A stretch of DNA of 64,000 bases, taken from an uncultured bacterium. GTDB lineage: Bacteria; Bipolaricaulota; Bipolaricaulia; UBA7950; UBA9294. Each line of letters starts with the position of its first letter. The stretch's first letter is position 1. The notes beneath the pieces are model-generated. The model made no database searches, was not told the DNA's origin, and saw only the letters and a program-made list of their open reading frames with translations. The translations under genes were made by a program, and so were the position numbers. The stretch spans positions 15,269-79,268 of the forward strand of contig CBDUVB010000004.1 in NCBI GenBank assembly GCA_965370555.1, given 5' to 3'. Below, in pieces: positions 14,810-24,300 of this stretch.

Positions 14810-15277
14810 ATGCCATCCGGGCGGACGCACTTGAAAATCGAGATGATCGGGCTTCTGATAGGCGCCATTGCCGTTGCCGTTCTCGTTGTGGAGGGGAGGA
14901 TCGACGCCTGGCTCGGAGGGATCTTCCTCAGTGCCTACCTCTTTTCGAGCCTCTTCCTGAGCCCCGATCTCGATCTCCACAACAGCCGGGCGACGAGACG
15001 TTGGGGGATCGCTCGTGCCTTGTGGCTCCCCTACTCATGGGTCTTCCGCCATCGTGCCGTCTCGCACCACCTCTTATTCGGCCCATTGACGCGGATCGCC
15101 TATCTGGGGGGGATTCTCCTTCTCATCCTATGGGGGATTGGTTCTCTTACAGGGAGATCCCTACGCCCGGCACTCCCACCGTGGCCGCTCTTCCTCGCGG
15201 CCCTCTGCGGGCTCTACCTGCCCAATCAGATACACATCGTCGTCGATCGATTGGTATCGTTCCGTTGGCACCGCTAG
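14810..15277 (+). CDS. DUF2227-like membrane metal-binding protein
   Basis: The MPSGRTH N-terminus is characteristic of COG2389/DUF2227, as I recall. Several TM helices and an SHHLLFGPLT motif. Preferred over the overlapping Arg/Pro-rich ORF 14680..15309. Confidence 0.6.
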   Translation: MPSGRTHLKIEMIGLLIGAIAVAVLVVEGRIDAWLGGIFLSAYLFSSLFLSPDLDLHNSRATRRWGIARALWLPYSWVFRHRAVSHHLLFGPLTRIAYLGGILLLILWGIGSLTGRSLRPALPPWPLFLAALCGLYLPNQIHIVVDRLVSFRWHR

Positions 15278-15692: not shown

Positions 15693-16040
15693 AGGCCATT
15701 AACTCCGCGCCTCTTAGGCTCTTCGCTGTGTCGAGTGGGTCACGGTTTCCAACTTTAGTCATTCAGTGACCCGACAAGGACATTTCTTTCTCTCGCCAAG
15801 ACACCAGGATCACCGGTCTTCGTCCAGCCCTACCTCTACTTGTCTTCCGCTCTTCTTTGCGCCTTTGCGAGATACAGTCTTTTTTCTCTCGCCCGTTCGC
15901 TACACTCACTCAAGACGCAAAGGTGTCGCGACACCAAGATCGCCAAGGGATAGTGGTTTTCACTCTTCGTGTCTCCGTGTCCCCGAGTCTCCCCTTCCTG
16001 CTCTTCGGCGAGAGACTCATCTCGTGAATCGTTCTCTGGG

Positions 16041-16244
16041 TTACCTTAGCCGTGAGGAACCACAACAAAAATGCCCTAATGCCCCAAAATCACCGAAACT
16101 AACGATCAGAAAGGGGTGATGAAAGAGAACCTCCAGGAGGTGGAGTAGCAGTATGGCTTTTTCGAGCATCTCTGTGCGGAAACCAGTGGCCTCCGCATCG
16201 GAAAGCAGCCTTTCCTTCGAGATCCTCACAGCACTTCCTCCCAA
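16041..16244 (-). pseudogene. AbiEii-type nucleotidyltransferase toxin, N-terminal remnant only (67 codons)
   Basis: ISKERLLSDAEATGFRTEMLEKAILLLHLLEVLFHHPFL resembles the typical AbiEii N-terminus. The ORF overlaps the AbiEi stop by 19 nt, as in intact pairs. It terminates after about 67 aa, whereas intact toxins are roughly 250-300 aa. No NTase core motifs follow in any frame. Confidence 0.6.
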
Positions 16245-17071
16245 CTACGCTCCAGGATTGCCAGAGGAACTACTAGGTTCCACTCTGGGATCAGACGCCC
16301 TGATCCTCTGGTGGTGCGTATCATATAGTGTGGACTCCGTGGCCGATGGGCGCGTAAAGCCGCCAGGTGATCATCCTCGACCACGAACCTATCCCGATGT
16401 TCCTCCAAGAAAAATCCGACCTTGCCGACAGTAGTTGCATTCTCCAGGAGCAGAGCGTACTTCACAACCGCATCCAAATCGAAGAACTCCACTGCCTCTA
16501 GCGATCGCCATATCTCTTCCCATCCTCCCCCCAGCTCCGGTCGGTCGAGGACATCCACCAGTGTCCGTTCCAGGCTGGTGACCCGAACGGGCACTCCGAG
16601 CCGCTCATGTATCTCTACGCTGAAAAATCCCTTCCCCTTCTCCTGAAGCTGCTTAGGCAATCGGACACCACGGAACTCATTCGCGCGGAACGTAGCAGCA
16701 CGCGTTGCACGCCTAGTCAGGTAGAGGTACAGACTACTAGAGGAGTAAGCCTTGCCATAGAATTGCAAGGCAGTATGGTACCCAAGCACTGCATCATCGG
16801 CCATCTTAGCTGCTAGCAGGTAGGGGTCAACTTGGCAAGATGCTGGATTAGAACCTGCTGGGACTATCACGTACAATCCACGACGCGCCCGCAACAAACG
16901 CCCCTTCTTCGTATGATATCGAAGGAGCGACTCCGTCGTTCTTTTACTACCAGGCCTCTGTAGCTGGAGAAATGCTGCGAACTCGCTTGTAGAAAAGACT
17001 GGATTTCTCTCGAAGAACCCATGAACGTCCACTTTACTCACCTTCTTGACATCAAGTAGCACAACCCGCAA
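16226..17071 (-). CDS. Type IV toxin-antitoxin system AbiEi-family antitoxin
   Basis: N-terminal wHTH-like region (VFSTSEFAAF...SLLRYHTKKGRLLRARRGLY). C-terminal domain has LGYHTALQFYG and ERTLVDVLDRPELGGGWEE, typical of AbiEi. The start codon is uncertain (TTG at 17071, with alternative GTGs downstream). Confidence 0.8.
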   Translation of the reverse strand: MRVVLLDVKKVSKVDVHGFFERNPVFSTSEFAAFLQLQRPGSKRTTESLLRYHTKKGRLLRARRGLYVIVPAGSNPASCQVDPYLLAAKMADDAVLGYHTALQFYGKAYSSSSLYLYLTRRATRAATFRANEFRGVRLPKQLQEKGKGFFSVEIHERLGVPVRVTSLERTLVDVLDRPELGGGWEEIWRSLEAVEFFDLDAVVKYALLLENATTVGKVGFFLEEHRDRFVVEDDHLAALRAHRPRSPHYMIRTTRGSGRLIPEWNLVVPLAILERSWEEVL

Positions 17072-17637
17072 GATTGTTACGTATTGTGCTGGCCTTTGTC
17101 AAGTAAACGGGGCCACGTTCTGTCACCGCGTTGGCAGATTGACTAATCGCAGTGGACAGCAATGCGCGTATTCCGATTGACCCGAACCGAGCAGAAGAGT
17201 TTGTCCCACCATGGGTGCGTCGCCCCGTGATTTGCCACAAAGTTCAAACCGATGAGTTAAGCATTAGGTCCCCGTAATTCCAGAATGAAGAACCGTGGGG
17301 GCGGCGTAAAAAACACCAAGAATAAAGACCTGACACCGGCGCCCTTGCCTGGTGCTGGAAAGGGTTTTTGTGTATCCATATTCCCCCTTATCACTCACCC
17401 TCCCGGCGCTCTAGCAAAGCTGGGCCGGGAAGATAGTAGGCTCCGCACCGCTCCCCTTTTAGTTGAAGATAGCCTTCATCTACAAGTCGTTTAAGTTCGT
17501 TTTTTGCCGCGTTGTGGATCACAAGACCAGGCAGTAGGATCGGCCAGGTACTTGACATCCTCGAGGCAGCTTCTATAATGAACTTGACCTCTACTTATAG
17601 TTTGGGTCCTACAAAGGCTTCGACCGCTGGGCCAATA

Positions 17638-17886
17638 CTAACCAGCGGTCAAACACTTCAGCCTACACTCCCAATGGTTACCACCTTGGTCCTGAGCGGA
17701 TCTTTTGGACCGCGGGTTGATCCATGGCAGAGAAAGGCAGAAACACCAAAAATAAAGATCAGGCCCCAATTCTCCTGCATCTTTCAGGGCCCCTGACACC
17801 TCAGGTCTAAAGCGAAATGCCATCACTACCACCAAGATCCCTGCAAGCACAAACACTACTGACAGAATCACCTGTACAAACATCAC
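17638..17886 (-). CDS. Hypothetical small protein with one N-terminal TM helix (tentative)
   Basis: MMFVQVILSVVFVLAGILVVVMAF then a polar tail. Starts 30 nt downstream of the 413-aa ORF on the same strand. No clear RBS. Confidence 0.3.
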   Translation of the reverse strand: MMFVQVILSVVFVLAGILVVVMAFRFRPEVSGALKDAGELGPDLYFWCFCLSLPWINPRSKRSAQDQGGNHWECRLKCLTAG

Positions 17887-17916
17887 GAAGTCCCCAACAT
17901 CGAAACCGAAACCCGT

Positions 17917-19158
17917 TCAACACCCTCCTTTCGATACTCGATTAGTCCCATGTCTCGACACCTTCTTCTGCAGAGTTCGGAAGAGGCGGCGAATTGGGAA
18001 GGCCTCCATTAGCAGGCCTCGCTGCTTGGCACCATGAAGATAGGCGACCGGAGATGTATCCAGCGCATCTGCAATCGCGTTCCTCTCACGGATCGCATGT
18101 TTCGTTATTTCCAAGACAAGCGGAGCTCCGATCCCAACTGCTTTCCACCATACTGGGATCTCGGAGGCAAAGGCCATCCCTCCAATCGCCTCAACGAATG
18201 GACTCGACTCGGTCTTGAGCACCACATCGACCTTATTGAACACTGCTTTGAGTCTGCGGCGCCTGAGCTTGGATGCCAACTCGTGCCGTTGGATATCCAT
18301 GTCGTGCATGAATCGCCGCAGGCATCTGAGTACTGCGGCCTCATCGCTTGCGGAAGCTACTTCAAGCGCCAACTCATCAATCAGCAGGCGGAAACGTGCG
18401 TAGCGTTCCCAATGGCGTTCTTTGAATCGGACGATGTCCTCAATGCGCGTGTCATGCGCAGGCATCGGAAACGCGTTCGATAGAACGAGCCCAAGCACAG
18501 GGGCGCTACTCGTCTGTGCCGAAGACGAGTACAGCAGTTGTCCGATAGCCATAGCGTCCGTGCTCGGCACGTAACGTTCTGCCTCGAAGGCACTGTAGTC
18601 ACGAGCCAATAGCCCCCAATGAAGCGCATTTCGAAGAACGGCGTGGCGCCTTGCTTCATCAACGGAAACGTTGAGCCGTTTGGCAAGTCTTGTTTGCACT
18701 TTCCCGTGGAGACCCAGGTCGGCTACCTCCTCCAAATGCTTCCGGACCGCTTCTTCAAGAGTGATCCCTTCCTCTGTCGCTTTGACCTGCGATTGGAGGA
18801 TGGTAACACTGTCCGCTAGCCAAGCCCGAATCGCTTCTCCGGTAGGGCTTGTCTGAATCGCCTTGGCCAGGGGAGTCTCCATCAGAGCGGCGCGCTCCCT
18901 GTCACGTTCTGTCTGTGCATCTAGGATCGGTGGCACGAAGAGGCAGTCTGGCTTCAGTGGAGAGAGCAACCCCTCTCGAATGAGGAATGCAATGTCAGGG
19001 ACAAGCAAGCAGAGCGCATCAACCCAGCGCTCATCCGCAAAGAGCGCTAAGCCATCCCAGTACAGGAGGCCCTGTCGAAGCCACAGCCCTGACGGAATGG
19101 TCATGAATGGAAAGTGCAAAAGCTGTTGGCTTGTCAAATCGACGTATAACTTGCTCAT
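17917..19158 (-). CDS. Hypothetical 413-aa protein, no domain recognised (cargo of repeat module A)
   Basis: Long uninterrupted ORF. ATGA overlap with the upstream 120-aa ORF. Composition looks mostly helical, with one moderately hydrophobic segment near the C-terminus (AIGGMAFASEIPVWWKAVGIGAPLVL). Confidence 0.7.
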   Translation of the reverse strand: MSKLYVDLTSQQLLHFPFMTIPSGLWLRQGLLYWDGLALFADERWVDALCLLVPDIAFLIREGLLSPLKPDCLFVPPILDAQTERDRERAALMETPLAKAIQTSPTGEAIRAWLADSVTILQSQVKATEEGITLEEAVRKHLEEVADLGLHGKVQTRLAKRLNVSVDEARRHAVLRNALHWGLLARDYSAFEAERYVPSTDAMAIGQLLYSSSAQTSSAPVLGLVLSNAFPMPAHDTRIEDIVRFKERHWERYARFRLLIDELALEVASASDEAAVLRCLRRFMHDMDIQRHELASKLRRRRLKAVFNKVDVVLKTESSPFVEAIGGMAFASEIPVWWKAVGIGAPLVLEITKHAIRERNAIADALDTSPVAYLHGAKQRGLLMEAFPIRRLFRTLQKKVSRHGTNRVSKGGC

Positions 19159-19517
19159 CCTTCCTTAGACACTTCCTTGGGCGGGTGGATGTAGGACGGC
19201 CAGTTGGGGGGCTTGGGTTGGCCGGGTTTCCATTCGGGAAAACGTAGGAAGTTGCCGTGTTCGTCTGCGGACAGACCGGGGGGCGGGTCGAGGAGGGTCT
19301 TGTACGATTCGCCCAAGTAGATGGCGTGTTGGAACGCATCGTAGATGCCAAGGATTTGAAGCTTGGTGCGGTATTCGCCGTAGTGACAAAGCTCTTTCTC
19401 TCCGGGGAAGCGCAGGAGTAGGTCTTCCACTGCAACATCAAAACATGTCCTCGGGCGAACATTTCTCTCCGGAGCCTCAACCTCTCTTGTAATGACCTGT
19501 TCTGTTCTCACCCTCAC
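19155..19517 (-). CDS. Duplicated 120-aa leader protein, copy A
   Basis: Residues 22-106 are identical to copy B (22805..23164). GTG start with aaagga upstream. Its stop overlaps the ATG of the 413-aa ORF (ATGA). Confidence 0.65.
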   Translation of the reverse strand: MRVRTEQVITREVEAPERNVRPRTCFDVAVEDLLLRFPGEKELCHYGEYRTKLQILGIYDAFQHAIYLGESYKTLLDPPPGLSADEHGNFLRFPEWKPGQPKPPNWPSYIHPPKEVSKEG

Positions 19518-19639
19518 AGTCCCGTCCTTTCTATCCGATACATAGGCCGCCTATTCACCGTATTTCCTCACCCTCACCCGTTTACTCATTCATTGTACAA
19601 GATTCTCACCCGCGGTGTGAAGCCGGATCAATGCTGACA
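19198..19639 (-). repeat. Direct repeat copy A (442 bp: promoter, 5' UTR and most of the 120-aa ORF)
   Basis: 19198-19455 is identical to 22845-23102 (258 bp, offset 3647). The remainder to 19639 matches 23103-23277 with scattered mismatches and a ~9-nt indel. The repeat ends 1 nt from the helicase stop codon (19641-19643). Confidence 0.9.
19592..19621 (-). promoter_or_regulatory. Sigma70-like promoter inside repeat A (TTCACA-18 nt-TACAAT)
   Basis: Reverse complement of 19616-19621 is ttcaca and of 19592-19597 is tacaat. The same sequence occurs in repeat B. Confidence 0.45.
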
Positions 19640-19640
19640 G

Positions 19641-22600
19641 CTAATCTTGAGTTTTGAATCTGGAACCTTGAATCACCTTGCGGCCCCTCTCCGTGAGCCG
19701 GTACTTCTGCTTGCTGCTGCGGGGTTTGTCAAGAATTGTCATCTCGATAAGTCCCGCTTCAATAGCAGGTTGAAGATAGCGGTCCCCGAAGTTCGCTTGA
19801 CCTTTCAGTCCAAGCGCAGTTTGGGACTGAGAGCGGGTCATTGTGTTAGTTCCCAATACCTCCAAGAGACGACGCACTTCACCTGCAACTTCACCCGTGA
19901 CTTCACCTACGACTTCTTTCGTGACTTGTGGGGTATCGGGCAAGGCGGCGGGCAGAGTCCCATCGGCAATGCTGTCAAGCTTGCGACGACGAGATCGAAT
20001 TGCGCTCGGTTGCCTCCCAAGGATTTCAGCAATAGTTGAGATGGGCACTTTCTCCTTAAGTAATTGGAGAAGCTCCTGCTCCTCATGCTCAGTCCATCTT
20101 GAATAGGCATTAGGGTACTTTTCCTTGATGCGCGCCAATTTTTGATGATACACCGAGTGTTCGAATTCTGTATCTTTGCGTGCGTTGGCGGGTGCTACAT
20201 AGCTCTGGCTTGGCGGTTGAGCCTTTTGTTCATCGGTGGTTCTCGAAGAGCTAGGGCGAGATCGAATGTGCTTCCTGGGACGATACCCGCATAGGTTGCA
20301 CTCGCGCCATGGTCCGTATTCCCCTGACATCTTGATAAGGACACCGGTTTCACACCTCGGACATTTCTCAAGAAGTGTCTCCTCCAGCACATCAATCTGG
20401 TTGACTTGTTTATCGTTTACTAGCTCACGAATGAATTCGGAAGTGTGGGTTTGATCAGAGATAAGAAAAGCCTCTCGCCGAGCTCGCGTTAAGGCCACAT
20501 AGAAAAGCCTTCTCTCCTCGGCATTGGGGAATGATTCGCTGTGCGAGAGCATGAGCTCAATAACTGGATCTTCTGAGATCTCGGAAGGCAACCCGTATCC
20601 ACGTGAGTCGGAGATCACGTCATCGATAATTACATAGTCGGCCTCCAACCCTTTACTCTTATGGATTGTTCTGAATGCGAACCTCAGAAAAGGGAACCGT
20701 GCTTGTAAACGTGCTATCAGGGCTCTTTTCGCTTTGCTATGCGTGTGGTTGTACCTGCCTAGCACAAAGACAGAAGCGGGGGTACCCATGGCATGCTCGG
20801 CGATCATCTCAACAGCTCTAACAAGCGGGGCTTCCCCGCCTTTTTCGTCCTTGCTTGCAAGCAGGAGATGCACTGATTTCTTGCCAGCCGGACGCTTGCA
20901 GGTAAGCCTTTTCCTGATCTGGTATGGATTTTTCAACACGAACTTTGAGCTAAGTTCCTCGATGTTAGGCCCGAAGCGAAAAGTCTCAGGTAGAACGGCC
21001 TGCTTATGAAAACCGAAGTCGTCGTCGAAATGCGTCATAACGCTTACATCAGCGCCAGCAAATCGATAGATTGATTGCCAATCGTCACCCACGCAAAAGA
21101 GTCGTGGTTGATCTGCGTTGTCAAGAATTGCCTTCAGGAAGCGTACCTTAGCAGGGGAGACATCCTGAAACTCGTCAACAAGGACATATCGGCAACACAG
21201 CGAGACTCGCCCGCTGTCCAGCACCTGCTTTCCGCCGTGAATCATGTCGTGGAAGTCGATCTCATTACAGCACCGCAGTTCTGTCTCATACACCTCAAGG
21301 ATTCTGGCGAAGATCTGAAGGATGGCCTGTGCTCGGTGCGATTGTGCGGCTGGAGCAGTGAAGAGCTCGGCCAGCTCATGTGCGCCTTCTTTGTAGAGAT
21401 TCAGGAAAGTGGCAAACAGGTTCGCTAAGCGCGTCACGCGACCACTTTTGTTGAACCTAGTCAGCATCTCACTGCGGCTCCTCGGTTTGAACTCCACACC
21501 CAGCTTGTTCAACTTCTCCGCTAGATTCGGTTCAAGGACACCTTCCTTTGCTTCCCACGAGTAGGATTCAATGAGCTTTGTTCCATGTTCACGATGCAGT
21601 AGCCGCTTCCAGGACATGCCGTCCTTGTAATCCTCTGCATCCCGCCCCTGGAGAAAGCCAGGGTTGCCTTGTCGATCAATCCCGAAGTGTTCAATGTAGA
21701 TTCCGTAATCGAGTAGGTAAAAGTCTGGTTTATACTGCTGGCGACCTGGAGCTGTTGTTTTGCGTTCGTATTTTCTTTCATATTCATACCTAATACCTTG
21801 AGAGAACAAGAAATTTGCGATACGAACCTCTTCGAAGCTCCGAAGTTTCTTGCCTTCTAGAAGAGCACGCGGCTCATGTGCTCGGATGTACTCCCAGTAC
21901 TCCTTCTTCGAACGGCAATCGAGCCATAACTTCGCAGGCGAAAGGTCATTAAGCAGGAAGTTGAACAGTTCTTGCTCGGCAGGATCCGCAAGCATCTCTC
22001 GGATCAACCCCTCGATGAACTGCACGAGAGCTTTGTTATCCTCTGCAAGCTTTGAAGCTGACAACCTCTCAGTCCCAACTTCGGCCATGAGAGAGCGACC
22101 GAAGCTGTGAAACGTGTATACCTCAACCCCTAGACCTCGGAGTCCTTCTCGCATCTCGCCAGCAACGTCTCTGCCAAACGATAACACAAGAAGGTCCTCG
22201 GAAGTGGCTGTTCCGGAGAGCACGAGGGACCGCGCCTTGGCGAGGAGTGTTGTTGTCTTGCCCGTCCCCGCGCCCGCAATCACAAGCGTACGGTCCTCGT
22301 CATGCAGAATGGCTCTTTCCTGTTCCTCGGTCAGAGGATAGTTCATAAGAGACTGGAGCAGCTCTCCGTGCTCTACGCGTTTTCGCTCTACGAACTCATA
22401 ATTCCGGTCATCGATCTCCGGGCGAGCATCGACAATTCGGCTGAGAAACATGGCAGAAAGTGCGGCCTCGCCTTCCGGCAACCCAAGGATTGCCTTCTCA
22501 AGTAGCTCCTTTCCAATGATGTTCTTTGAGGTTTTCAACCAGTCCCGATGCTCACTGTTTCTGAAGTAGTCATTCTTGGAAAGGAGGTTATCAAAGACCT

Positions 22601-22808
22601 GATTGGCCTCGCGAACCTGTGGCAGTAACCCCAGGAATAGTTCTGCTGCATGCTCACGATGAACCGCAACTTCCAGGATGTCCATACACAACCTGTGAAG
22701 CACTCTATTCCGCGCGGCCGTGGTGTTTGTAGCGATCCAGATGTTACGGGAAAGATAGAGAAGCAATAACACTGCAGCGAGCACACCTAATGCAATGCCC
22801 ATGATCAA
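19641..22808 (-). CDS. Membrane-anchored UvrD/helicase IV-like SF1 helicase with PD-(D/E)xK-like insert, Zn-ribbon, Myb/SANT-like HTH and Fic-C-terminal-type wHTH
   Basis: TM helix at aa 3-24. Walker A AGAGTGKTT (aa 178-186), DEFQD (545-549), VGDDWQSIYRFAGA (573-586) and VALTRAR (771-777). Insert ANFLFSQGIRYEYE...YKPDFYLLDYGIYIEHFG (aa 330-376). CPRC-x19-CNLC (816-840). WTEHEEQELL...ISTIAEILGRQPSAIRSRRRKL (905-944). YLQPAIEAGLIEMTILDKPRSSKQKYRLTERG (1011-1042). The track start is TTG at 22808; the first ATG is at 22802. Confidence 0.85.
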   Translation of the reverse strand: MIMGIALGVLAAVLLLLYLSRNIWIATNTTAARNRVLHRLCMDILEVAVHREHAAELFLGLLPQVREANQVFDNLLSKNDYFRNSEHRDWLKTSKNIIGKELLEKAILGLPEGEAALSAMFLSRIVDARPEIDDRNYEFVERKRVEHGELLQSLMNYPLTEEQERAILHDEDRTLVIAGAGTGKTTTLLAKARSLVLSGTATSEDLLVLSFGRDVAGEMREGLRGLGVEVYTFHSFGRSLMAEVGTERLSASKLAEDNKALVQFIEGLIREMLADPAEQELFNFLLNDLSPAKLWLDCRSKKEYWEYIRAHEPRALLEGKKLRSFEEVRIANFLFSQGIRYEYERKYERKTTAPGRQQYKPDFYLLDYGIYIEHFGIDRQGNPGFLQGRDAEDYKDGMSWKRLLHREHGTKLIESYSWEAKEGVLEPNLAEKLNKLGVEFKPRSRSEMLTRFNKSGRVTRLANLFATFLNLYKEGAHELAELFTAPAAQSHRAQAILQIFARILEVYETELRCCNEIDFHDMIHGGKQVLDSGRVSLCCRYVLVDEFQDVSPAKVRFLKAILDNADQPRLFCVGDDWQSIYRFAGADVSVMTHFDDDFGFHKQAVLPETFRFGPNIEELSSKFVLKNPYQIRKRLTCKRPAGKKSVHLLLASKDEKGGEAPLVRAVEMIAEHAMGTPASVFVLGRYNHTHSKAKRALIARLQARFPFLRFAFRTIHKSKGLEADYVIIDDVISDSRGYGLPSEISEDPVIELMLSHSESFPNAEERRLFYVALTRARREAFLISDQTHTSEFIRELVNDKQVNQIDVLEETLLEKCPRCETGVLIKMSGEYGPWRECNLCGYRPRKHIRSRPSSSRTTDEQKAQPPSQSYVAPANARKDTEFEHSVYHQKLARIKEKYPNAYSRWTEHEEQELLQLLKEKVPISTIAEILGRQPSAIRSRRRKLDSIADGTLPAALPDTPQVTKEVVGEVTGEVAGEVRRLLEVLGTNTMTRSQSQTALGLKGQANFGDRYLQPAIEAGLIEMTILDKPRSSKQKYRLTERGRKVIQGSRFKTQD

Positions 22809-23164
22809 TGTTCTGCTACCTCCTTAGGGGAATAGACATGGGGAGGCCAGTTGGGGGGCTTGGGTTGGCCGGGTTTCCATTCGGGAAAACGTAGGAAGTT
22901 GCCGTGTTCGTCTGCGGACAGACCGGGGGGCGGGTCGAGGAGGGTCTTGTACGATTCGCCCAAGTAGATGGCGTGTTGGAACGCATCGTAGATGCCAAGG
23001 ATTTGAAGCTTGGTGCGGTATTCGCCGTAGTGACAAAGCTCTTTCTCTCCGGGGAAGCGCAGGAGTAGGTCTTCCACTGCAACATCAAAACATGTCCTCG
23101 GGTAAACGTTTCGCTCCGAGGCCTCAACCTCTCTTGTAATGACCTGTTGCGATCCCACCCTCAC
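22805..23164 (-). CDS. Duplicated 119-aa leader protein, copy B
   Basis: Same protein as 19155..19517 apart from 5 substitutions in the first 21 aa and a divergent last ~13 aa. The stop TGA (22805-22807) lies 2 nt before the helicase ATG (22800-22802). Confidence 0.65.
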   Translation of the reverse strand: MRVGSQQVITREVEASERNVYPRTCFDVAVEDLLLRFPGEKELCHYGEYRTKLQILGIYDAFQHAIYLGESYKTLLDPPPGLSADEHGNFLRFPEWKPGQPKPPNWPPHVYSPKEVAEH

Positions 23165-23277
23165 AGTCCCATCCTTTCTATCCGATACATAGACCGCCTA
23201 TTCGCTCACCCTCACCCGTTTACTCATTCATTGTACAAGATTCTCACCTGCGGTGTGAAGCCGGATCGATGCTGACA
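22845..23277 (-). repeat. Direct repeat copy B (433 bp)
   Basis: See copy A. 22845-23102 is identical to 19198-19455. Confidence 0.9.
23230..23259 (-). promoter_or_regulatory. Sigma70-like promoter inside repeat B (TTCACA-18 nt-TACAAT)
   Basis: Reverse complement of 23254-23259 is ttcaca and of 23230-23235 is tacaat. Confidence 0.45.
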
Positions 23278-23527
23278 TCTCCTTGACTGACAATAACTTG
23301 CATTGTGCTTTACATAATGGAGCAAAAGTCGTGCGTTCACGTGGTTTTGGGGGATGATTCCCTTGTCCCATGGTCCTGACAAGGTGAGATAGGCTGTTTT
23401 CGGGCTCGCTTCATCCCTCACAGGAACATCATTCGCTGTTCACGGGAACTTCATAAGTGTGGCGTATAGTTACGGTGTGCGAGCAGAGTATCGCACCTCC
23501 TTACAGGCAAGAAAAGTTTGCAAGCAA

Positions 23528-24270: not shown

Positions 24271-24300
24271 ATAAGGAAACCCTGTGGCAAGACCACAGGG
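24271..24300 (-). terminator. Hairpin plus T-rich tail on the minus strand, likely terminator of the ACD-DRTGG operon; copy of the 8938-8968 element
   Basis: The minus strand reads ccctgtgg-tcttg-ccacaggg-tttccttat. It lies ~80 nt downstream of the DRTGG gene stop. Confidence 0.5.

Follow-up and report, generated by a model that had tools for sequence, protein, structure and literature searches.

A repeated promoter and type IIG gene end as a putative head for exchangeable defence cassettes in an uncultured bacterium

The DNA analysed here, referred to throughout as the window, is a 64-kb stretch from an uncultured bacterium (positions 15,269 to 79,268 of contig CBDUVB010000004.1), and our subject is a repeat of approximately 0.48 kb that occurs in it twice, each time directly in front of a different gene. 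The two repeats and the genes behind them, here termed cargo genes, lie on the minus strand between 17.6 and 23.3 kb, within an island that extends from 15.7 to 24.4 kb. Each repeat contains a promoter-like sequence and a short open reading frame (ORF) encoding 119 or 120 residues, and an earlier note on this DNA had taken the product to be an adaptor or sensor shared by two defence modules. On balance we favour a different interpretation, namely that the repeat is a cassette head for the recombination and expression of exchangeable defence genes, and not an adaptor protein. The evidence is comparative throughout, and most of the relatives drawn upon are short metagenome contigs.

Two copies of a composite repeat

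Two pairs of direct-repeat blocks mark the element: 19171-19470 and 22818-23117 are 95% identical at a spacing of 3,647 nucleotides (nt), and 19561-19642 and 23199-23280 are 94% identical at a spacing of 3,638 nt. When the copies (repeats A and B, respectively) are aligned as single units, three zones of differing identity emerge. The 5′ zone is ~90% identical (163 matches, 18 mismatches and a 9-nt indel) and gives way to a 258-nt tract that is 100% identical in the end-to-end alignment (19198-19455 = 22845-23102, minus strand), which is directly adjoined by the 3′-most ~45 nt, where identity is only 58%. By our calculation the chance of a 258-nt identical run is ~1e-7 given ~6% divergence, and we interpret the tract as the footprint of recent recombination or gene conversion between the two heads in this genome. 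An independent assembly (ENA contig L004) reproduces repeat B, the helicase gene behind it and the start of repeat A at 99.9% DNA identity, so the arrangement is not an assembly artefact; this contig encodes a protein identical to the 119-residue product of repeat B and a helicase that is 99.7% identical at the protein level.

Both repeats consist of an upstream piece, Part 1, and a downstream piece, Part 2. Part 1 of repeat B (23053-23280) comprises a predicted promoter with a -35 hexamer at 23259-23254 and a -10 hexamer at 23235-23230, an operator-like inverted repeat (TTCACACC-GCA-GGTGAGAA, 23259-23241), a purine-rich leader, a GTG start codon at 23164 and ~37 codons. The 119-residue leader ORF given in the ORF list (22805-23164) is a chimera of the two parts; its Part 2 (22805-23049, YGEYRTK...PEWKPGQPKPPNWP...PKEVAEH*) corresponds to the 3′ end, ~75 codons long, of a type IIG/DrmMI-like methyltransferase gene, and the final codons contain a Shine-Dalgarno sequence, AAGGAGGT, for the helicase gene. 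Repeat A has a Part 1 at 19406-19642, with hexamers at 19621-19616 and 19597-19592, an inverted repeat (TTCACACC-GCG-GGTGAGAA, 19621-19603), a leader, a GTG start at 19517 and ~37 codons, and a type IIG tail remnant as Part 2 at 19155-19402, ending in ...PKEVSKEG*; its ORF of 120 residues spans 19155-19517 in the ORF list. Here the end of Part 2 contains the Shine-Dalgarno sequence AAGGAAGG and overlaps a gene for a 413-residue protein by ATGA. The promoter reads TTCACA-18-TACAAT in both copies (23259-23230 and 19621-19592), and a 20-mer around it occurs exactly twice in the window against an expectation of 0.01. The claim of the earlier note that one promoter and one small ORF are duplicated in front of two unrelated genes is thus borne out, both repeats, both promoters and both intact ORFs having been found, and the overlaps between ORF and cargo are as it described: besides the ATGA join, the first ATG of the helicase gene lies 2 nt beyond the small-ORF stop. 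A TTG start of the helicase gene overlaps the stop itself. The motif GGTGAG/GTGAGG occurs three times in the head (CGGGTGAGAAT, GAGGGTGAGGAAA and CTGTGAGGGTG, for example within 19540-19612 on the minus strand) and most copies keep it; the three occurrences could serve as binding sites arranged as direct repeats.

The two small ORFs match no family in Pfam, NCBIfam or PADLOC. An exhaustive HMMER search aligned their residues ~40-117 with the extreme C-terminus of proteins of 1,350-1,441 residues (P0041, P0051, P0090, P0100 and P0118); those that were scanned, P0041, P0051 and P0100, contain Eco57I/N6_Mtase/MmeI_Mtase domains, and P0041 and P0051 additionally match the PADLOC models for DrmMI and type IIG enzymes. 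The tail motif, FPIVKRKDE..YGEYRTK..PYQT.LDPPPGPP..PEWKPGQPKP.NWP.HIHPP, was followed in a reference set of 80 genome loci that carry it, where it mostly forms the end of a frame of 1,300-1,470 codons. Both ORFs of the window retain the conserved C-terminal tail YGEYRTK...PYQT.LDPPPGPP...PEWKPGQPKP.NWP, which makes up approximately the last 80 residues of these parent enzymes. No full-length parent is present in the window, as tblastn with four parents matches only residues ~1257-1380 (the last ~110), twice; methyltransferase, nuclease and target recognition domains (TRDs) are lacking from the two small ORFs, and only ~75-115 codons of a type IIG-like gene remain. Because the distal two thirds of the small ORF are homologous to the extreme C-terminus of methyltransferases of 1,300-1,470 residues, they are a gene remnant, and this homology identifies Part 2 as what is left of a type IIG/DrmMI-like methyltransferase gene at its 3′ end.

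The repeat itself is, by sequence comparison, a composite of two separable pieces. BLAST of repeat A against 134 fetched loci splits it into two blocks, at positions ~14-255 and ~259/277-493; similarity to a full-length parent (L088, 79.5% nucleotide identity) starts abruptly at the YGEYRTK codons, and Part 1 is found without Part 2 in many JGI contigs.

Part 1 heads at least 10 different cargos in the window and related metagenome contigs. In the window these are the helicase (repeat B) and a DUF6236 gene (repeat A). Elsewhere they include DuOB with DUF488 and a YhcG-type nuclease; a 323-residue and, separately, a 238-residue transmembrane protein; a PLD-SNF2 helicase followed in locus L117 by a complete type IIG enzyme of 1,313 residues; an Mrr_cat nuclease with an AAA_13 ATPase (the PADLOC candidate PDC-S06); YhcG/DUF1016 nucleases; an N6_N4 methyltransferase; and, behind the first ~135 nt of Part 1 only, DUF3644 with type III mod and res genes. 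The comparison of these sequences demonstrates a variety of cargos behind one head. Most of the JGI contigs with Part 1 are variants of a single locus, which follows an FAD-oxidoreductase gene. Contigs share 94-98% identity in the flank formed by this gene, and at least five cassette arrangements occur behind it; read from these alignments, cassettes turn over at the level of strains at one hypervariable hotspot. The type III operon (DUF3644, mod, res) of L113 (114-9251) and L132 (109-7763) is preceded by the first ~100-135 nt of the leader and followed by short ends of the type IIG tail (repeat positions ~393-493), so both junction pieces can flank a system that is not type IIG.

An alignment of 16 distinct copies shows that the -35 and -10 hexamers and the spacer element GAGAAT are invariant or nearly so, and that the -35 hexamer lies within an imperfect inverted repeat, TTCACACC-N3-GGTGAGAA. 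Identity between the window and the JGI contigs is 82-87% for the head and only 70% for the adjacent DUF6236 gene. Several other identities for the head were considered and rejected. A phage or satellite origin was set aside since the leader motif has zero matches in 2.9 million viral contigs. A structured RNA or riboswitch in the leader finds no match in Rfam, and across the 16 copies RNAalifold attributes only -1.6 kcal/mol to covariation; the fold of a single sequence has a z-score of -0.29. A diversity-generating retroelement would be expected to vary at adenines; the core is instead 100% identical, and no reverse-transcriptase domain was found among the island ORFs scanned.

Tails that have lost the enzyme are also found outside this lineage. 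Among reference genomes of several phyla there are ~14 such orphan fragments (among them those in L007, L010, L017, L020, L029, L035-L038, L047, L062 and L072), to which repeats A and B of the window can be added; they are cut at various points, often at FPIVKRK or GEYRTK. The genes that follow them encode EcsC, OLD/AAA_15, SIR2_2, GmrSD, KAP NTPase, PLD, DarT and DUF4062 proteins, often with overlapping stop and start codons. In two cases the cargo behind an orphan belongs to the same family as the cargo behind full-length parents (L047 with L041/52/53/54, and L062 with L049), and L035 has the order SNF2 helicase, full enzyme, orphan tail and new cargo. Genes downstream of full-length parents are themselves diverse, with 55 singletons among 65 clusters. 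Some full-length enzymes extend in frame for 120-415 residues past the tail, including P0083 (1,758 residues), P0123 and P0124; such extensions occur at L008, L015, L018, L022, L024, L033, L039 and L050, and that of P0083 contains an HxHxDH-like motif, HWHTDHYRG. A subgroup of parents with an extension of ~160-210 residues is always followed by a conserved protein of ~660-700 residues that belongs to no known family.

Cargo genes, junctions and the surrounding island

The cargo behind repeat B, identified by domain scans, is a helicase IV/UvrD-like protein of 1,055 residues (19641-22808, minus strand). It matches the NCBIfam model PRK11054 (DNA helicase IV, HelD) with 360.6 bits, below the equivalog cut-off of 543, and contains an N-terminal hydrophobic segment, a nuclease-like insert (a weak Phage_endo_I-type match), a zinc ribbon, a Myb/helix-turn-helix (HTH) region and a Fic-like_C winged helix-turn-helix (wHTH) domain. 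Domain homology marks it as a relative of HelD with an extra hydrophobic segment, a nuclease-like insert and HTH/wHTH extensions, in agreement with the earlier call of a helicase with nuclease-like and HTH regions. Membership of the Gabija system was rejected: GajB models do match the helicase (E = 4e-36), yet no GajA-like gene is adjacent, and the match is generic UvrD similarity.

Residues 1-850 of the helicase are the ancestral core, and residues 851-1055 (19641-20258) are a lineage-specific extension with Myb/HTH_23-like and Fic-like_C wHTH domains. This 205-residue extension is present only in the window helicase; close homologues are 785-868 residues in length, 52-80% identical, and end without it. 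The last 98 residues of the helicase (the Fic-like_C wHTH, residues 958-1055, 19641-19937 on the minus strand) are 49% identical to the C-terminus of a SLFN_AlbA_2-HATPase_c_4-Fic-like_C protein in L117, rising to 87% over the last 38, and the gene for that protein precedes the leader. From these alignments the extension looks like a recent in-frame fusion made at a cassette junction. The same 3′ coding end precedes Part 1 in L120 and L132, and remnants of it persist in L001, L002 and L119. The wHTH gene end and the leader therefore travel together as one junction module, which by its sequence is compatible with a DNA-binding domain accompanied by its operator.

The other junctions also vary around a recognizable tail end. 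The closest named helicase homologue, an 849-residue protein that is 80% identical and comes from a Candidatus Acetothermia metagenome-assembled genome, keeps GAGGTAACAGAACATTGATCA(TG) before its start, the rest of the tail having been replaced, and has rve and IS110 transposases nearby. The bacterium that carries the window is probably a relative of Acetothermia/Bipolaricaulota. Tail and helicase adjoin in L141, and DUF6236 follows a tail end in L138 and L001; in L135, a type IIG gene cut by the start of the contig is followed 1.8 kb further on by DUF6236. The order in L138 is DUF6236, a 130-residue protein and then the helicase, the reverse of that in the window. Since each cargo keeps its own tail end, the cassettes can be read as rearranged units of tail end plus cargo. 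In Acetothermia contigs the helicase is followed by a DUF3800 protein (PADLOC candidate PDC-M04A, E = 2.7e-98) and a small ORF; DUF3800 occurs at 3108-4315 in L139, at 3534-4244 in L140 and, after a type IIG enzyme, at 2508-3651 in L135, and from these positions it looks like another travelling cassette.

Behind repeat A lies a gene for a 413-residue protein (17917-19158, minus strand) with a weak match to DUF6236 in a Pfam-type scan. The family is rare, with 5 clusters at 90% identity among 5.8 billion sequences; an AlphaFold model built from a 5-sequence alignment is unusable, with a predicted local distance difference test score (pLDDT) of 41.5, a PDB sequence search returned no match, and DUF6236 was mentioned in no paper found in a literature search. 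The second ORF of this cassette in the ORF list encodes 82 residues with one hydrophobic helix (17638-17886, minus strand). It matches only the first ~45 residues of a 130-residue protein that follows DUF6236 in L135, L136 and L138 (copies at 5521-5913 in L135 and 1292-1684 in L138), which shows several hydrophobic stretches by eye, and it is frameshifted relative to the copy in L001; judged by these alignments, the 82-residue ORF probably derives from the gene for the 130-residue membrane protein by truncation or frameshift. Downstream of the 82-residue ORF there is a perfect-consensus sigma-70 match, TTGACA-16-TATAAT (12/12 positions; 17552-17579, plus strand), which is directed antisense into the DUF6236 module. 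A 55-residue ORF (…ELKRLVDEGYLQLKGERCGAYYLPGP…, 17391-17558, minus strand) has no Pfam match but resembles the end of a winged-helix regulator and is possibly, to judge from that resemblance, another relic of a cassette boundary.

The remainder of the island holds an intact AbiEi antitoxin-type gene (16226-17071, minus strand; PADLOC E = 1.5e-109). Within 15700-17071, AbiEii was not found at its expected place, where ~530 nt are available and a remnant was not exhaustively searched for; a 67-residue ORF downstream of AbiEi matches no family. The 'decayed AbiE pair' proposed earlier needs correction in that its AbiEi gene is full length. The same note had described the region as a defence-island setting, and this is what the gene content suggests, a small defence-type island flanked by housekeeping genes. 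Its remark that the region is AT-richer than its flanks holds weakly: G+C content is 0.50-0.56 in comparison with 0.56-0.62 in the immediate flanks, but falls to 0.48-0.53 in the right third of the window, and the idea of a compositional island was dropped, since G+C content is not distinctive at the scale of the window. The housekeeping edge of the island is marked by a strong terminator-like hairpin directly 3′ of the DRTGG gene (24280-24300, minus strand; 9 pairs, 6 of them G-C, and a T run). The window contains no Rfam match and no tRNA or tmRNA, and a tRNA/tmRNA integration site was excluded on that basis.

Expression, exchange and competing explanations

We propose that the island is built from cassettes, each headed by a composite junction element. 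Part 1 would supply a sigma-70-type promoter overlapped by the inverted repeat, a purine-rich leader of ~100 nt and the 5′ end of an upstream ORF. Part 2 would supply, in the last codons of the tail, the ribosome-binding site of the gene that formerly stood behind the type IIG enzyme. Transcription would begin at the conserved promoter, and ribosomes would initiate at the conserved GTG and translate through the remnant. Termination on or near the cargo start (ATGA, TGATG or TTGA) would leave a promoter-less cargo both transcribed and translationally coupled. Part 1, the type IIG tail and the Fic-like_C 3′ end would, in turn, provide the homology for recombination that stacks, swaps and deletes cassettes. 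That the promoter is active, that a repressor binds the inverted repeat, that translation is coupled and that cassettes are exchanged by homologous recombination are all inferences.

Two features of the leader ORF point to coupling. Its stop overlaps the cargo start (as ATGA, TGATG or TTGA) or lies no more than 3 nt away in 7 of 12 distinct cassettes, a higher frequency than expected of random junctions. The tail ends in the codons …PKEV, which read CCnAAGGAgGT and so encode a Shine-Dalgarno sequence; of 53 distinct tails, 29 contain a Shine-Dalgarno-like pentamer within their final 40 nt (background, 16%). The coupling would on this evidence have been inherited from operons in which a type IIG gene was followed by a downstream gene, with the leader ORF now being read by ribosomes, and the 119- or 120-residue product is probably a by-product of the arrangement and not a dedicated sensor.

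Several observations count against this proposal. Both window ORFs are intact and keep every invariant residue of the tail family, and the ratio of non-synonymous to synonymous change (dN/dS) in Part 2 between orphan copies is 0.37, not 1, so that a function of the peptide is possible; the value fits mostly inherited purifying selection with some relaxation, and a residual role is possible. If junctions keep the 3′ ends of former upstream genes, the 7 of 12 in-frame junctions are marginal (binomial P ~0.05-0.07). Breakpoints in Part 1 cluster at ~152 and 254-265, which simple homologous recombination does not obviously predict. Since metagenome contigs are short, some orphans (for example, orphan 1 of L007) may be parents that were truncated or frameshifted in assembly. 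Part 1 may itself derive, at an earlier date, from the same type IIG tail, and tblastn alignments extend into it as they would into a decayed proximal tail, but its peptide does not match the proximal tail of the parents significantly (hhalign probability 0.3, E = 0.19). Promoter, operator and coupling, moreover, are all read from sequence.

The strongest competitor of the cassette head, possible although we do not expect it to replace that reading, places regulation first: a repressor at the inverted repeat over the -35 hexamer would switch all cassettes together, for example on infection, and recombination would be secondary. A candidate for the repressor is the Fic-like_C wHTH encoded just upstream, and the model is compatible with a cassette head. 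Even copies with divergent sequence elsewhere keep the spacer and inverted repeat, which are invariant across 16 copies, and the Fic-like_C wHTH gene end lies directly upstream of the heads of repeat A, L117, L120 and L132 (with the remnants noted above). The RptR-controlled promoter of an island with restriction-modification (R-M) and DarTG genes offers a precedent (PMC12255303). Repeat B, however, has no wHTH gene upstream, a simple operator needs neither a long conserved leader nor an ORF, and no RNA structure or covariation was detected in the leader; repressor binding is a prediction from the inverted repeat.

We consider it unlikely that the 119- or 120-residue protein is a functional adaptor or sensor that works with each effector in two two-gene defence modules. 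Its intact, cargo-coupled ORFs, its retained invariant residues and the dN/dS value would suit such a role, close homologues occur as short ORFs in other metagenomes, and the tail of full-length enzymes could conceivably dock a downstream partner. The length of the ORF nevertheless differs between cassettes, with 16, 41, 45, 47, 59, 63, 105 or 119/120 codons behind the same GTG (range 16-137) and an in-frame stop at codon 18 in one cassette type. Variability at codon positions 1, 2 and 3 of Part 1 is 0.096, 0.087 and 0.129, in comparison with 0.083 in the non-coding leader, so that by this measure Part 1 has almost no coding signature. In its AlphaFold model, the 119-residue product forms two helices, with a further ~50 residues as coil (pLDDT 61, predicted template modelling score 0.31), no family model recognizes the protein, and the orphan tails of other phyla are cut at differing points. 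The same head also precedes complete multi-gene R-M systems, including type III and SNF2/type IIG systems, which need no adaptor. What survives of the modular defence system with swappable effectors suggested by the earlier note is the head in front of exchangeable cargos; the shared adaptor or sensor finds no support, the small ORF being in large part a gene remnant, variable in length and with almost no coding signature in Part 1. Linkage of the small ORF to helicase or 413-residue genes is similarly divided: it is absent from the 80 genome loci, the one exception being a shared wHTH domain in L011, and present but variable in close metagenomic relatives.

Equally improbable is that the repeats are inert debris: pseudogene fragments and the product of a recent segmental duplication in an island under decay, contributing nothing to expression or exchange. 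The absence of a parent enzyme from the window, the missing AbiEii, the frameshift in the 82-residue ORF and the stop in one leader ORF could all be explained in this way. Debris would not be expected to leave a head that is better conserved than the adjacent cargo (83% versus 70%), promoter hexamers that are invariant in at least 16 copies before at least 10 cargos, stop/start coupling that recurs, or a helicase that is intact and has 99.7% protein identity in an independent assembly. A site-specific, integron-like system with a recombinase acting near the 5′ edge of the head and at position ~255 is the least probable of all and very doubtful, for although the copies have a common 5′ boundary and the breakpoints cluster before at least five different cargos, these are not nucleotide-identical, no integrase or recombinase was found among the genes examined in the island or beside the arrays (transposases, rve and IS110, occur only close to the Acetothermia helicase), the search for inverted repeats and attC-like hairpins yielded none (z = -0.29), and the leader motif is absent from viral contigs.

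The cassette head may be one case of something wider. More tentatively than any control by a common repressor, we suggest that the type IIG/DrmMI-like tail is a dedicated, cross-phylum exchange point for defence genes, with orphan units forming a silent or semi-silent reservoir that would be shuffled without an integrase and that is joined here to a promoter-leader with a common operator. If so, orphan units of tail and cargo would re-attach to a full-length enzyme or stack into arrays by homologous recombination, a shuffling of immune effectors akin to that of polymorphic toxins in which tail codons would supply the ribosome-binding site and the common operator a single switch.

Comparison with known systems

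How defence genes are gained, lost and reshuffled within islands is largely unexplained beyond the existence of hotspots between conserved flanks, and the locus offers a model, testable in sequence, in which conserved 3′ gene ends and a promoter-leader would serve as recombination handles and expression platform. Known or candidate defence functions are strongly enriched among the genes that immediately follow the leader or an orphan type IIG tail, so the uncharacterized cargos are good candidates for new defence genes, among them DUF6236 with the small membrane protein, the 323- and 238-residue transmembrane proteins, and DuOB with DUF488. For annotation the locus is a caution: a short, intact, duplicated ORF beside defence genes can be a recombination scar and not a component of a system. 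A full-text literature search found no description of type IIG tail-anchored cassettes or of this leader.

Integrons consist of cassettes with attC sites, are expressed from the Pc promoter and have, at attI, the translational coupling provided by ORF-11. The present arrays are similar in that exchangeable cassettes, mostly of single function, would be expressed from a shared upstream platform with a short upstream ORF that aids translation. They differ in that each cassette has its own copy of the promoter and exchange appears to be homology-based. No recombinase domain was detected among the ORFs examined in the island and its flanks or in the examined genes of related arrays; a search for attC sites found no inverted repeats of 30 nt or more in 15-26 kb, and the leader at 19490-19590 folds no better than its shuffled versions. 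As neither such repeats nor an integrase were found, the locus was not classed as an integron.

Matus-Garcia, Nijveen & van Passel (2012; PMC3575422) apply the term putative mobile promoter to upstream sequences that stand before non-homologous genes and share at least 80% identity across 50 nt or more. The head falls within this definition, in the window as well as between genomes, the leader being ~90% identical between repeats A and B, with 94% over the 82-nt promoter block, and 82-87% identical before other cargos. Unlike mobile promoters, it is ~240-490 nt long, contains a leader ORF, apparently translated, that ends on the cargo start, precedes only defence cargos and occurs in hotspot arrays.

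Defence hotspots such as the immigration control region of enteric bacteria (E. coli; PMC12707154) resemble the locus in their variable defence content between conserved anchors. DarTG2 inside a type I R-M system, under the RptR-controlled promoter (PMC12255303), likewise shows accessory defence genes tied physically and transcriptionally to an R-M gene, with a conserved operator in the island promoter. Here, in contrast to hotspots, the anchor is not a flanking core gene and is instead an internal repeated head (promoter-leader plus relic R-M gene end) that stands between cassettes. Type IIG R-M enzymes, and DrmMI of DISARM with its SNF2 partner (DrmD-like), are related to the locus through the C-terminal tail to which Part 2 is homologous, and a full enzyme follows an SNF2 helicase in L117 and, in the case of a more distant relative, in L035; the window differs from them in having only the short, domain-less end of the gene.

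Polymorphic toxin systems, such as contact-dependent inhibition (CDI, with its cdiA-CT/cdiI modules) and Rhs, have orphan C-terminal/immunity modules (Zhang et al. 2012, PMC3482391). The parents in the present case are intracellular type IIG R-M enzymes, DNA methyltransferases and not secreted toxins, and in place of a toxin tip and immunity pair, the module that varies is usually a defence gene of its own or a whole system (R-M, nuclease, helicase, SIR2, DarT and the like); in this lineage the promoter-leader is fused to the fragment, and the window has no full-length parent. As in polymorphic toxins, a conserved 3′ gene fragment is repeated downstream, each copy with a different variable module, and recombination in the conserved stretch is put forward as the route of exchange. 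A full gene followed by a displaced orphan is seen in L035, some parents have variable in-frame C-terminal extensions, and, as expected of an orphan module, a fragment of a large gene joined to a variable module is found apart from the full gene.

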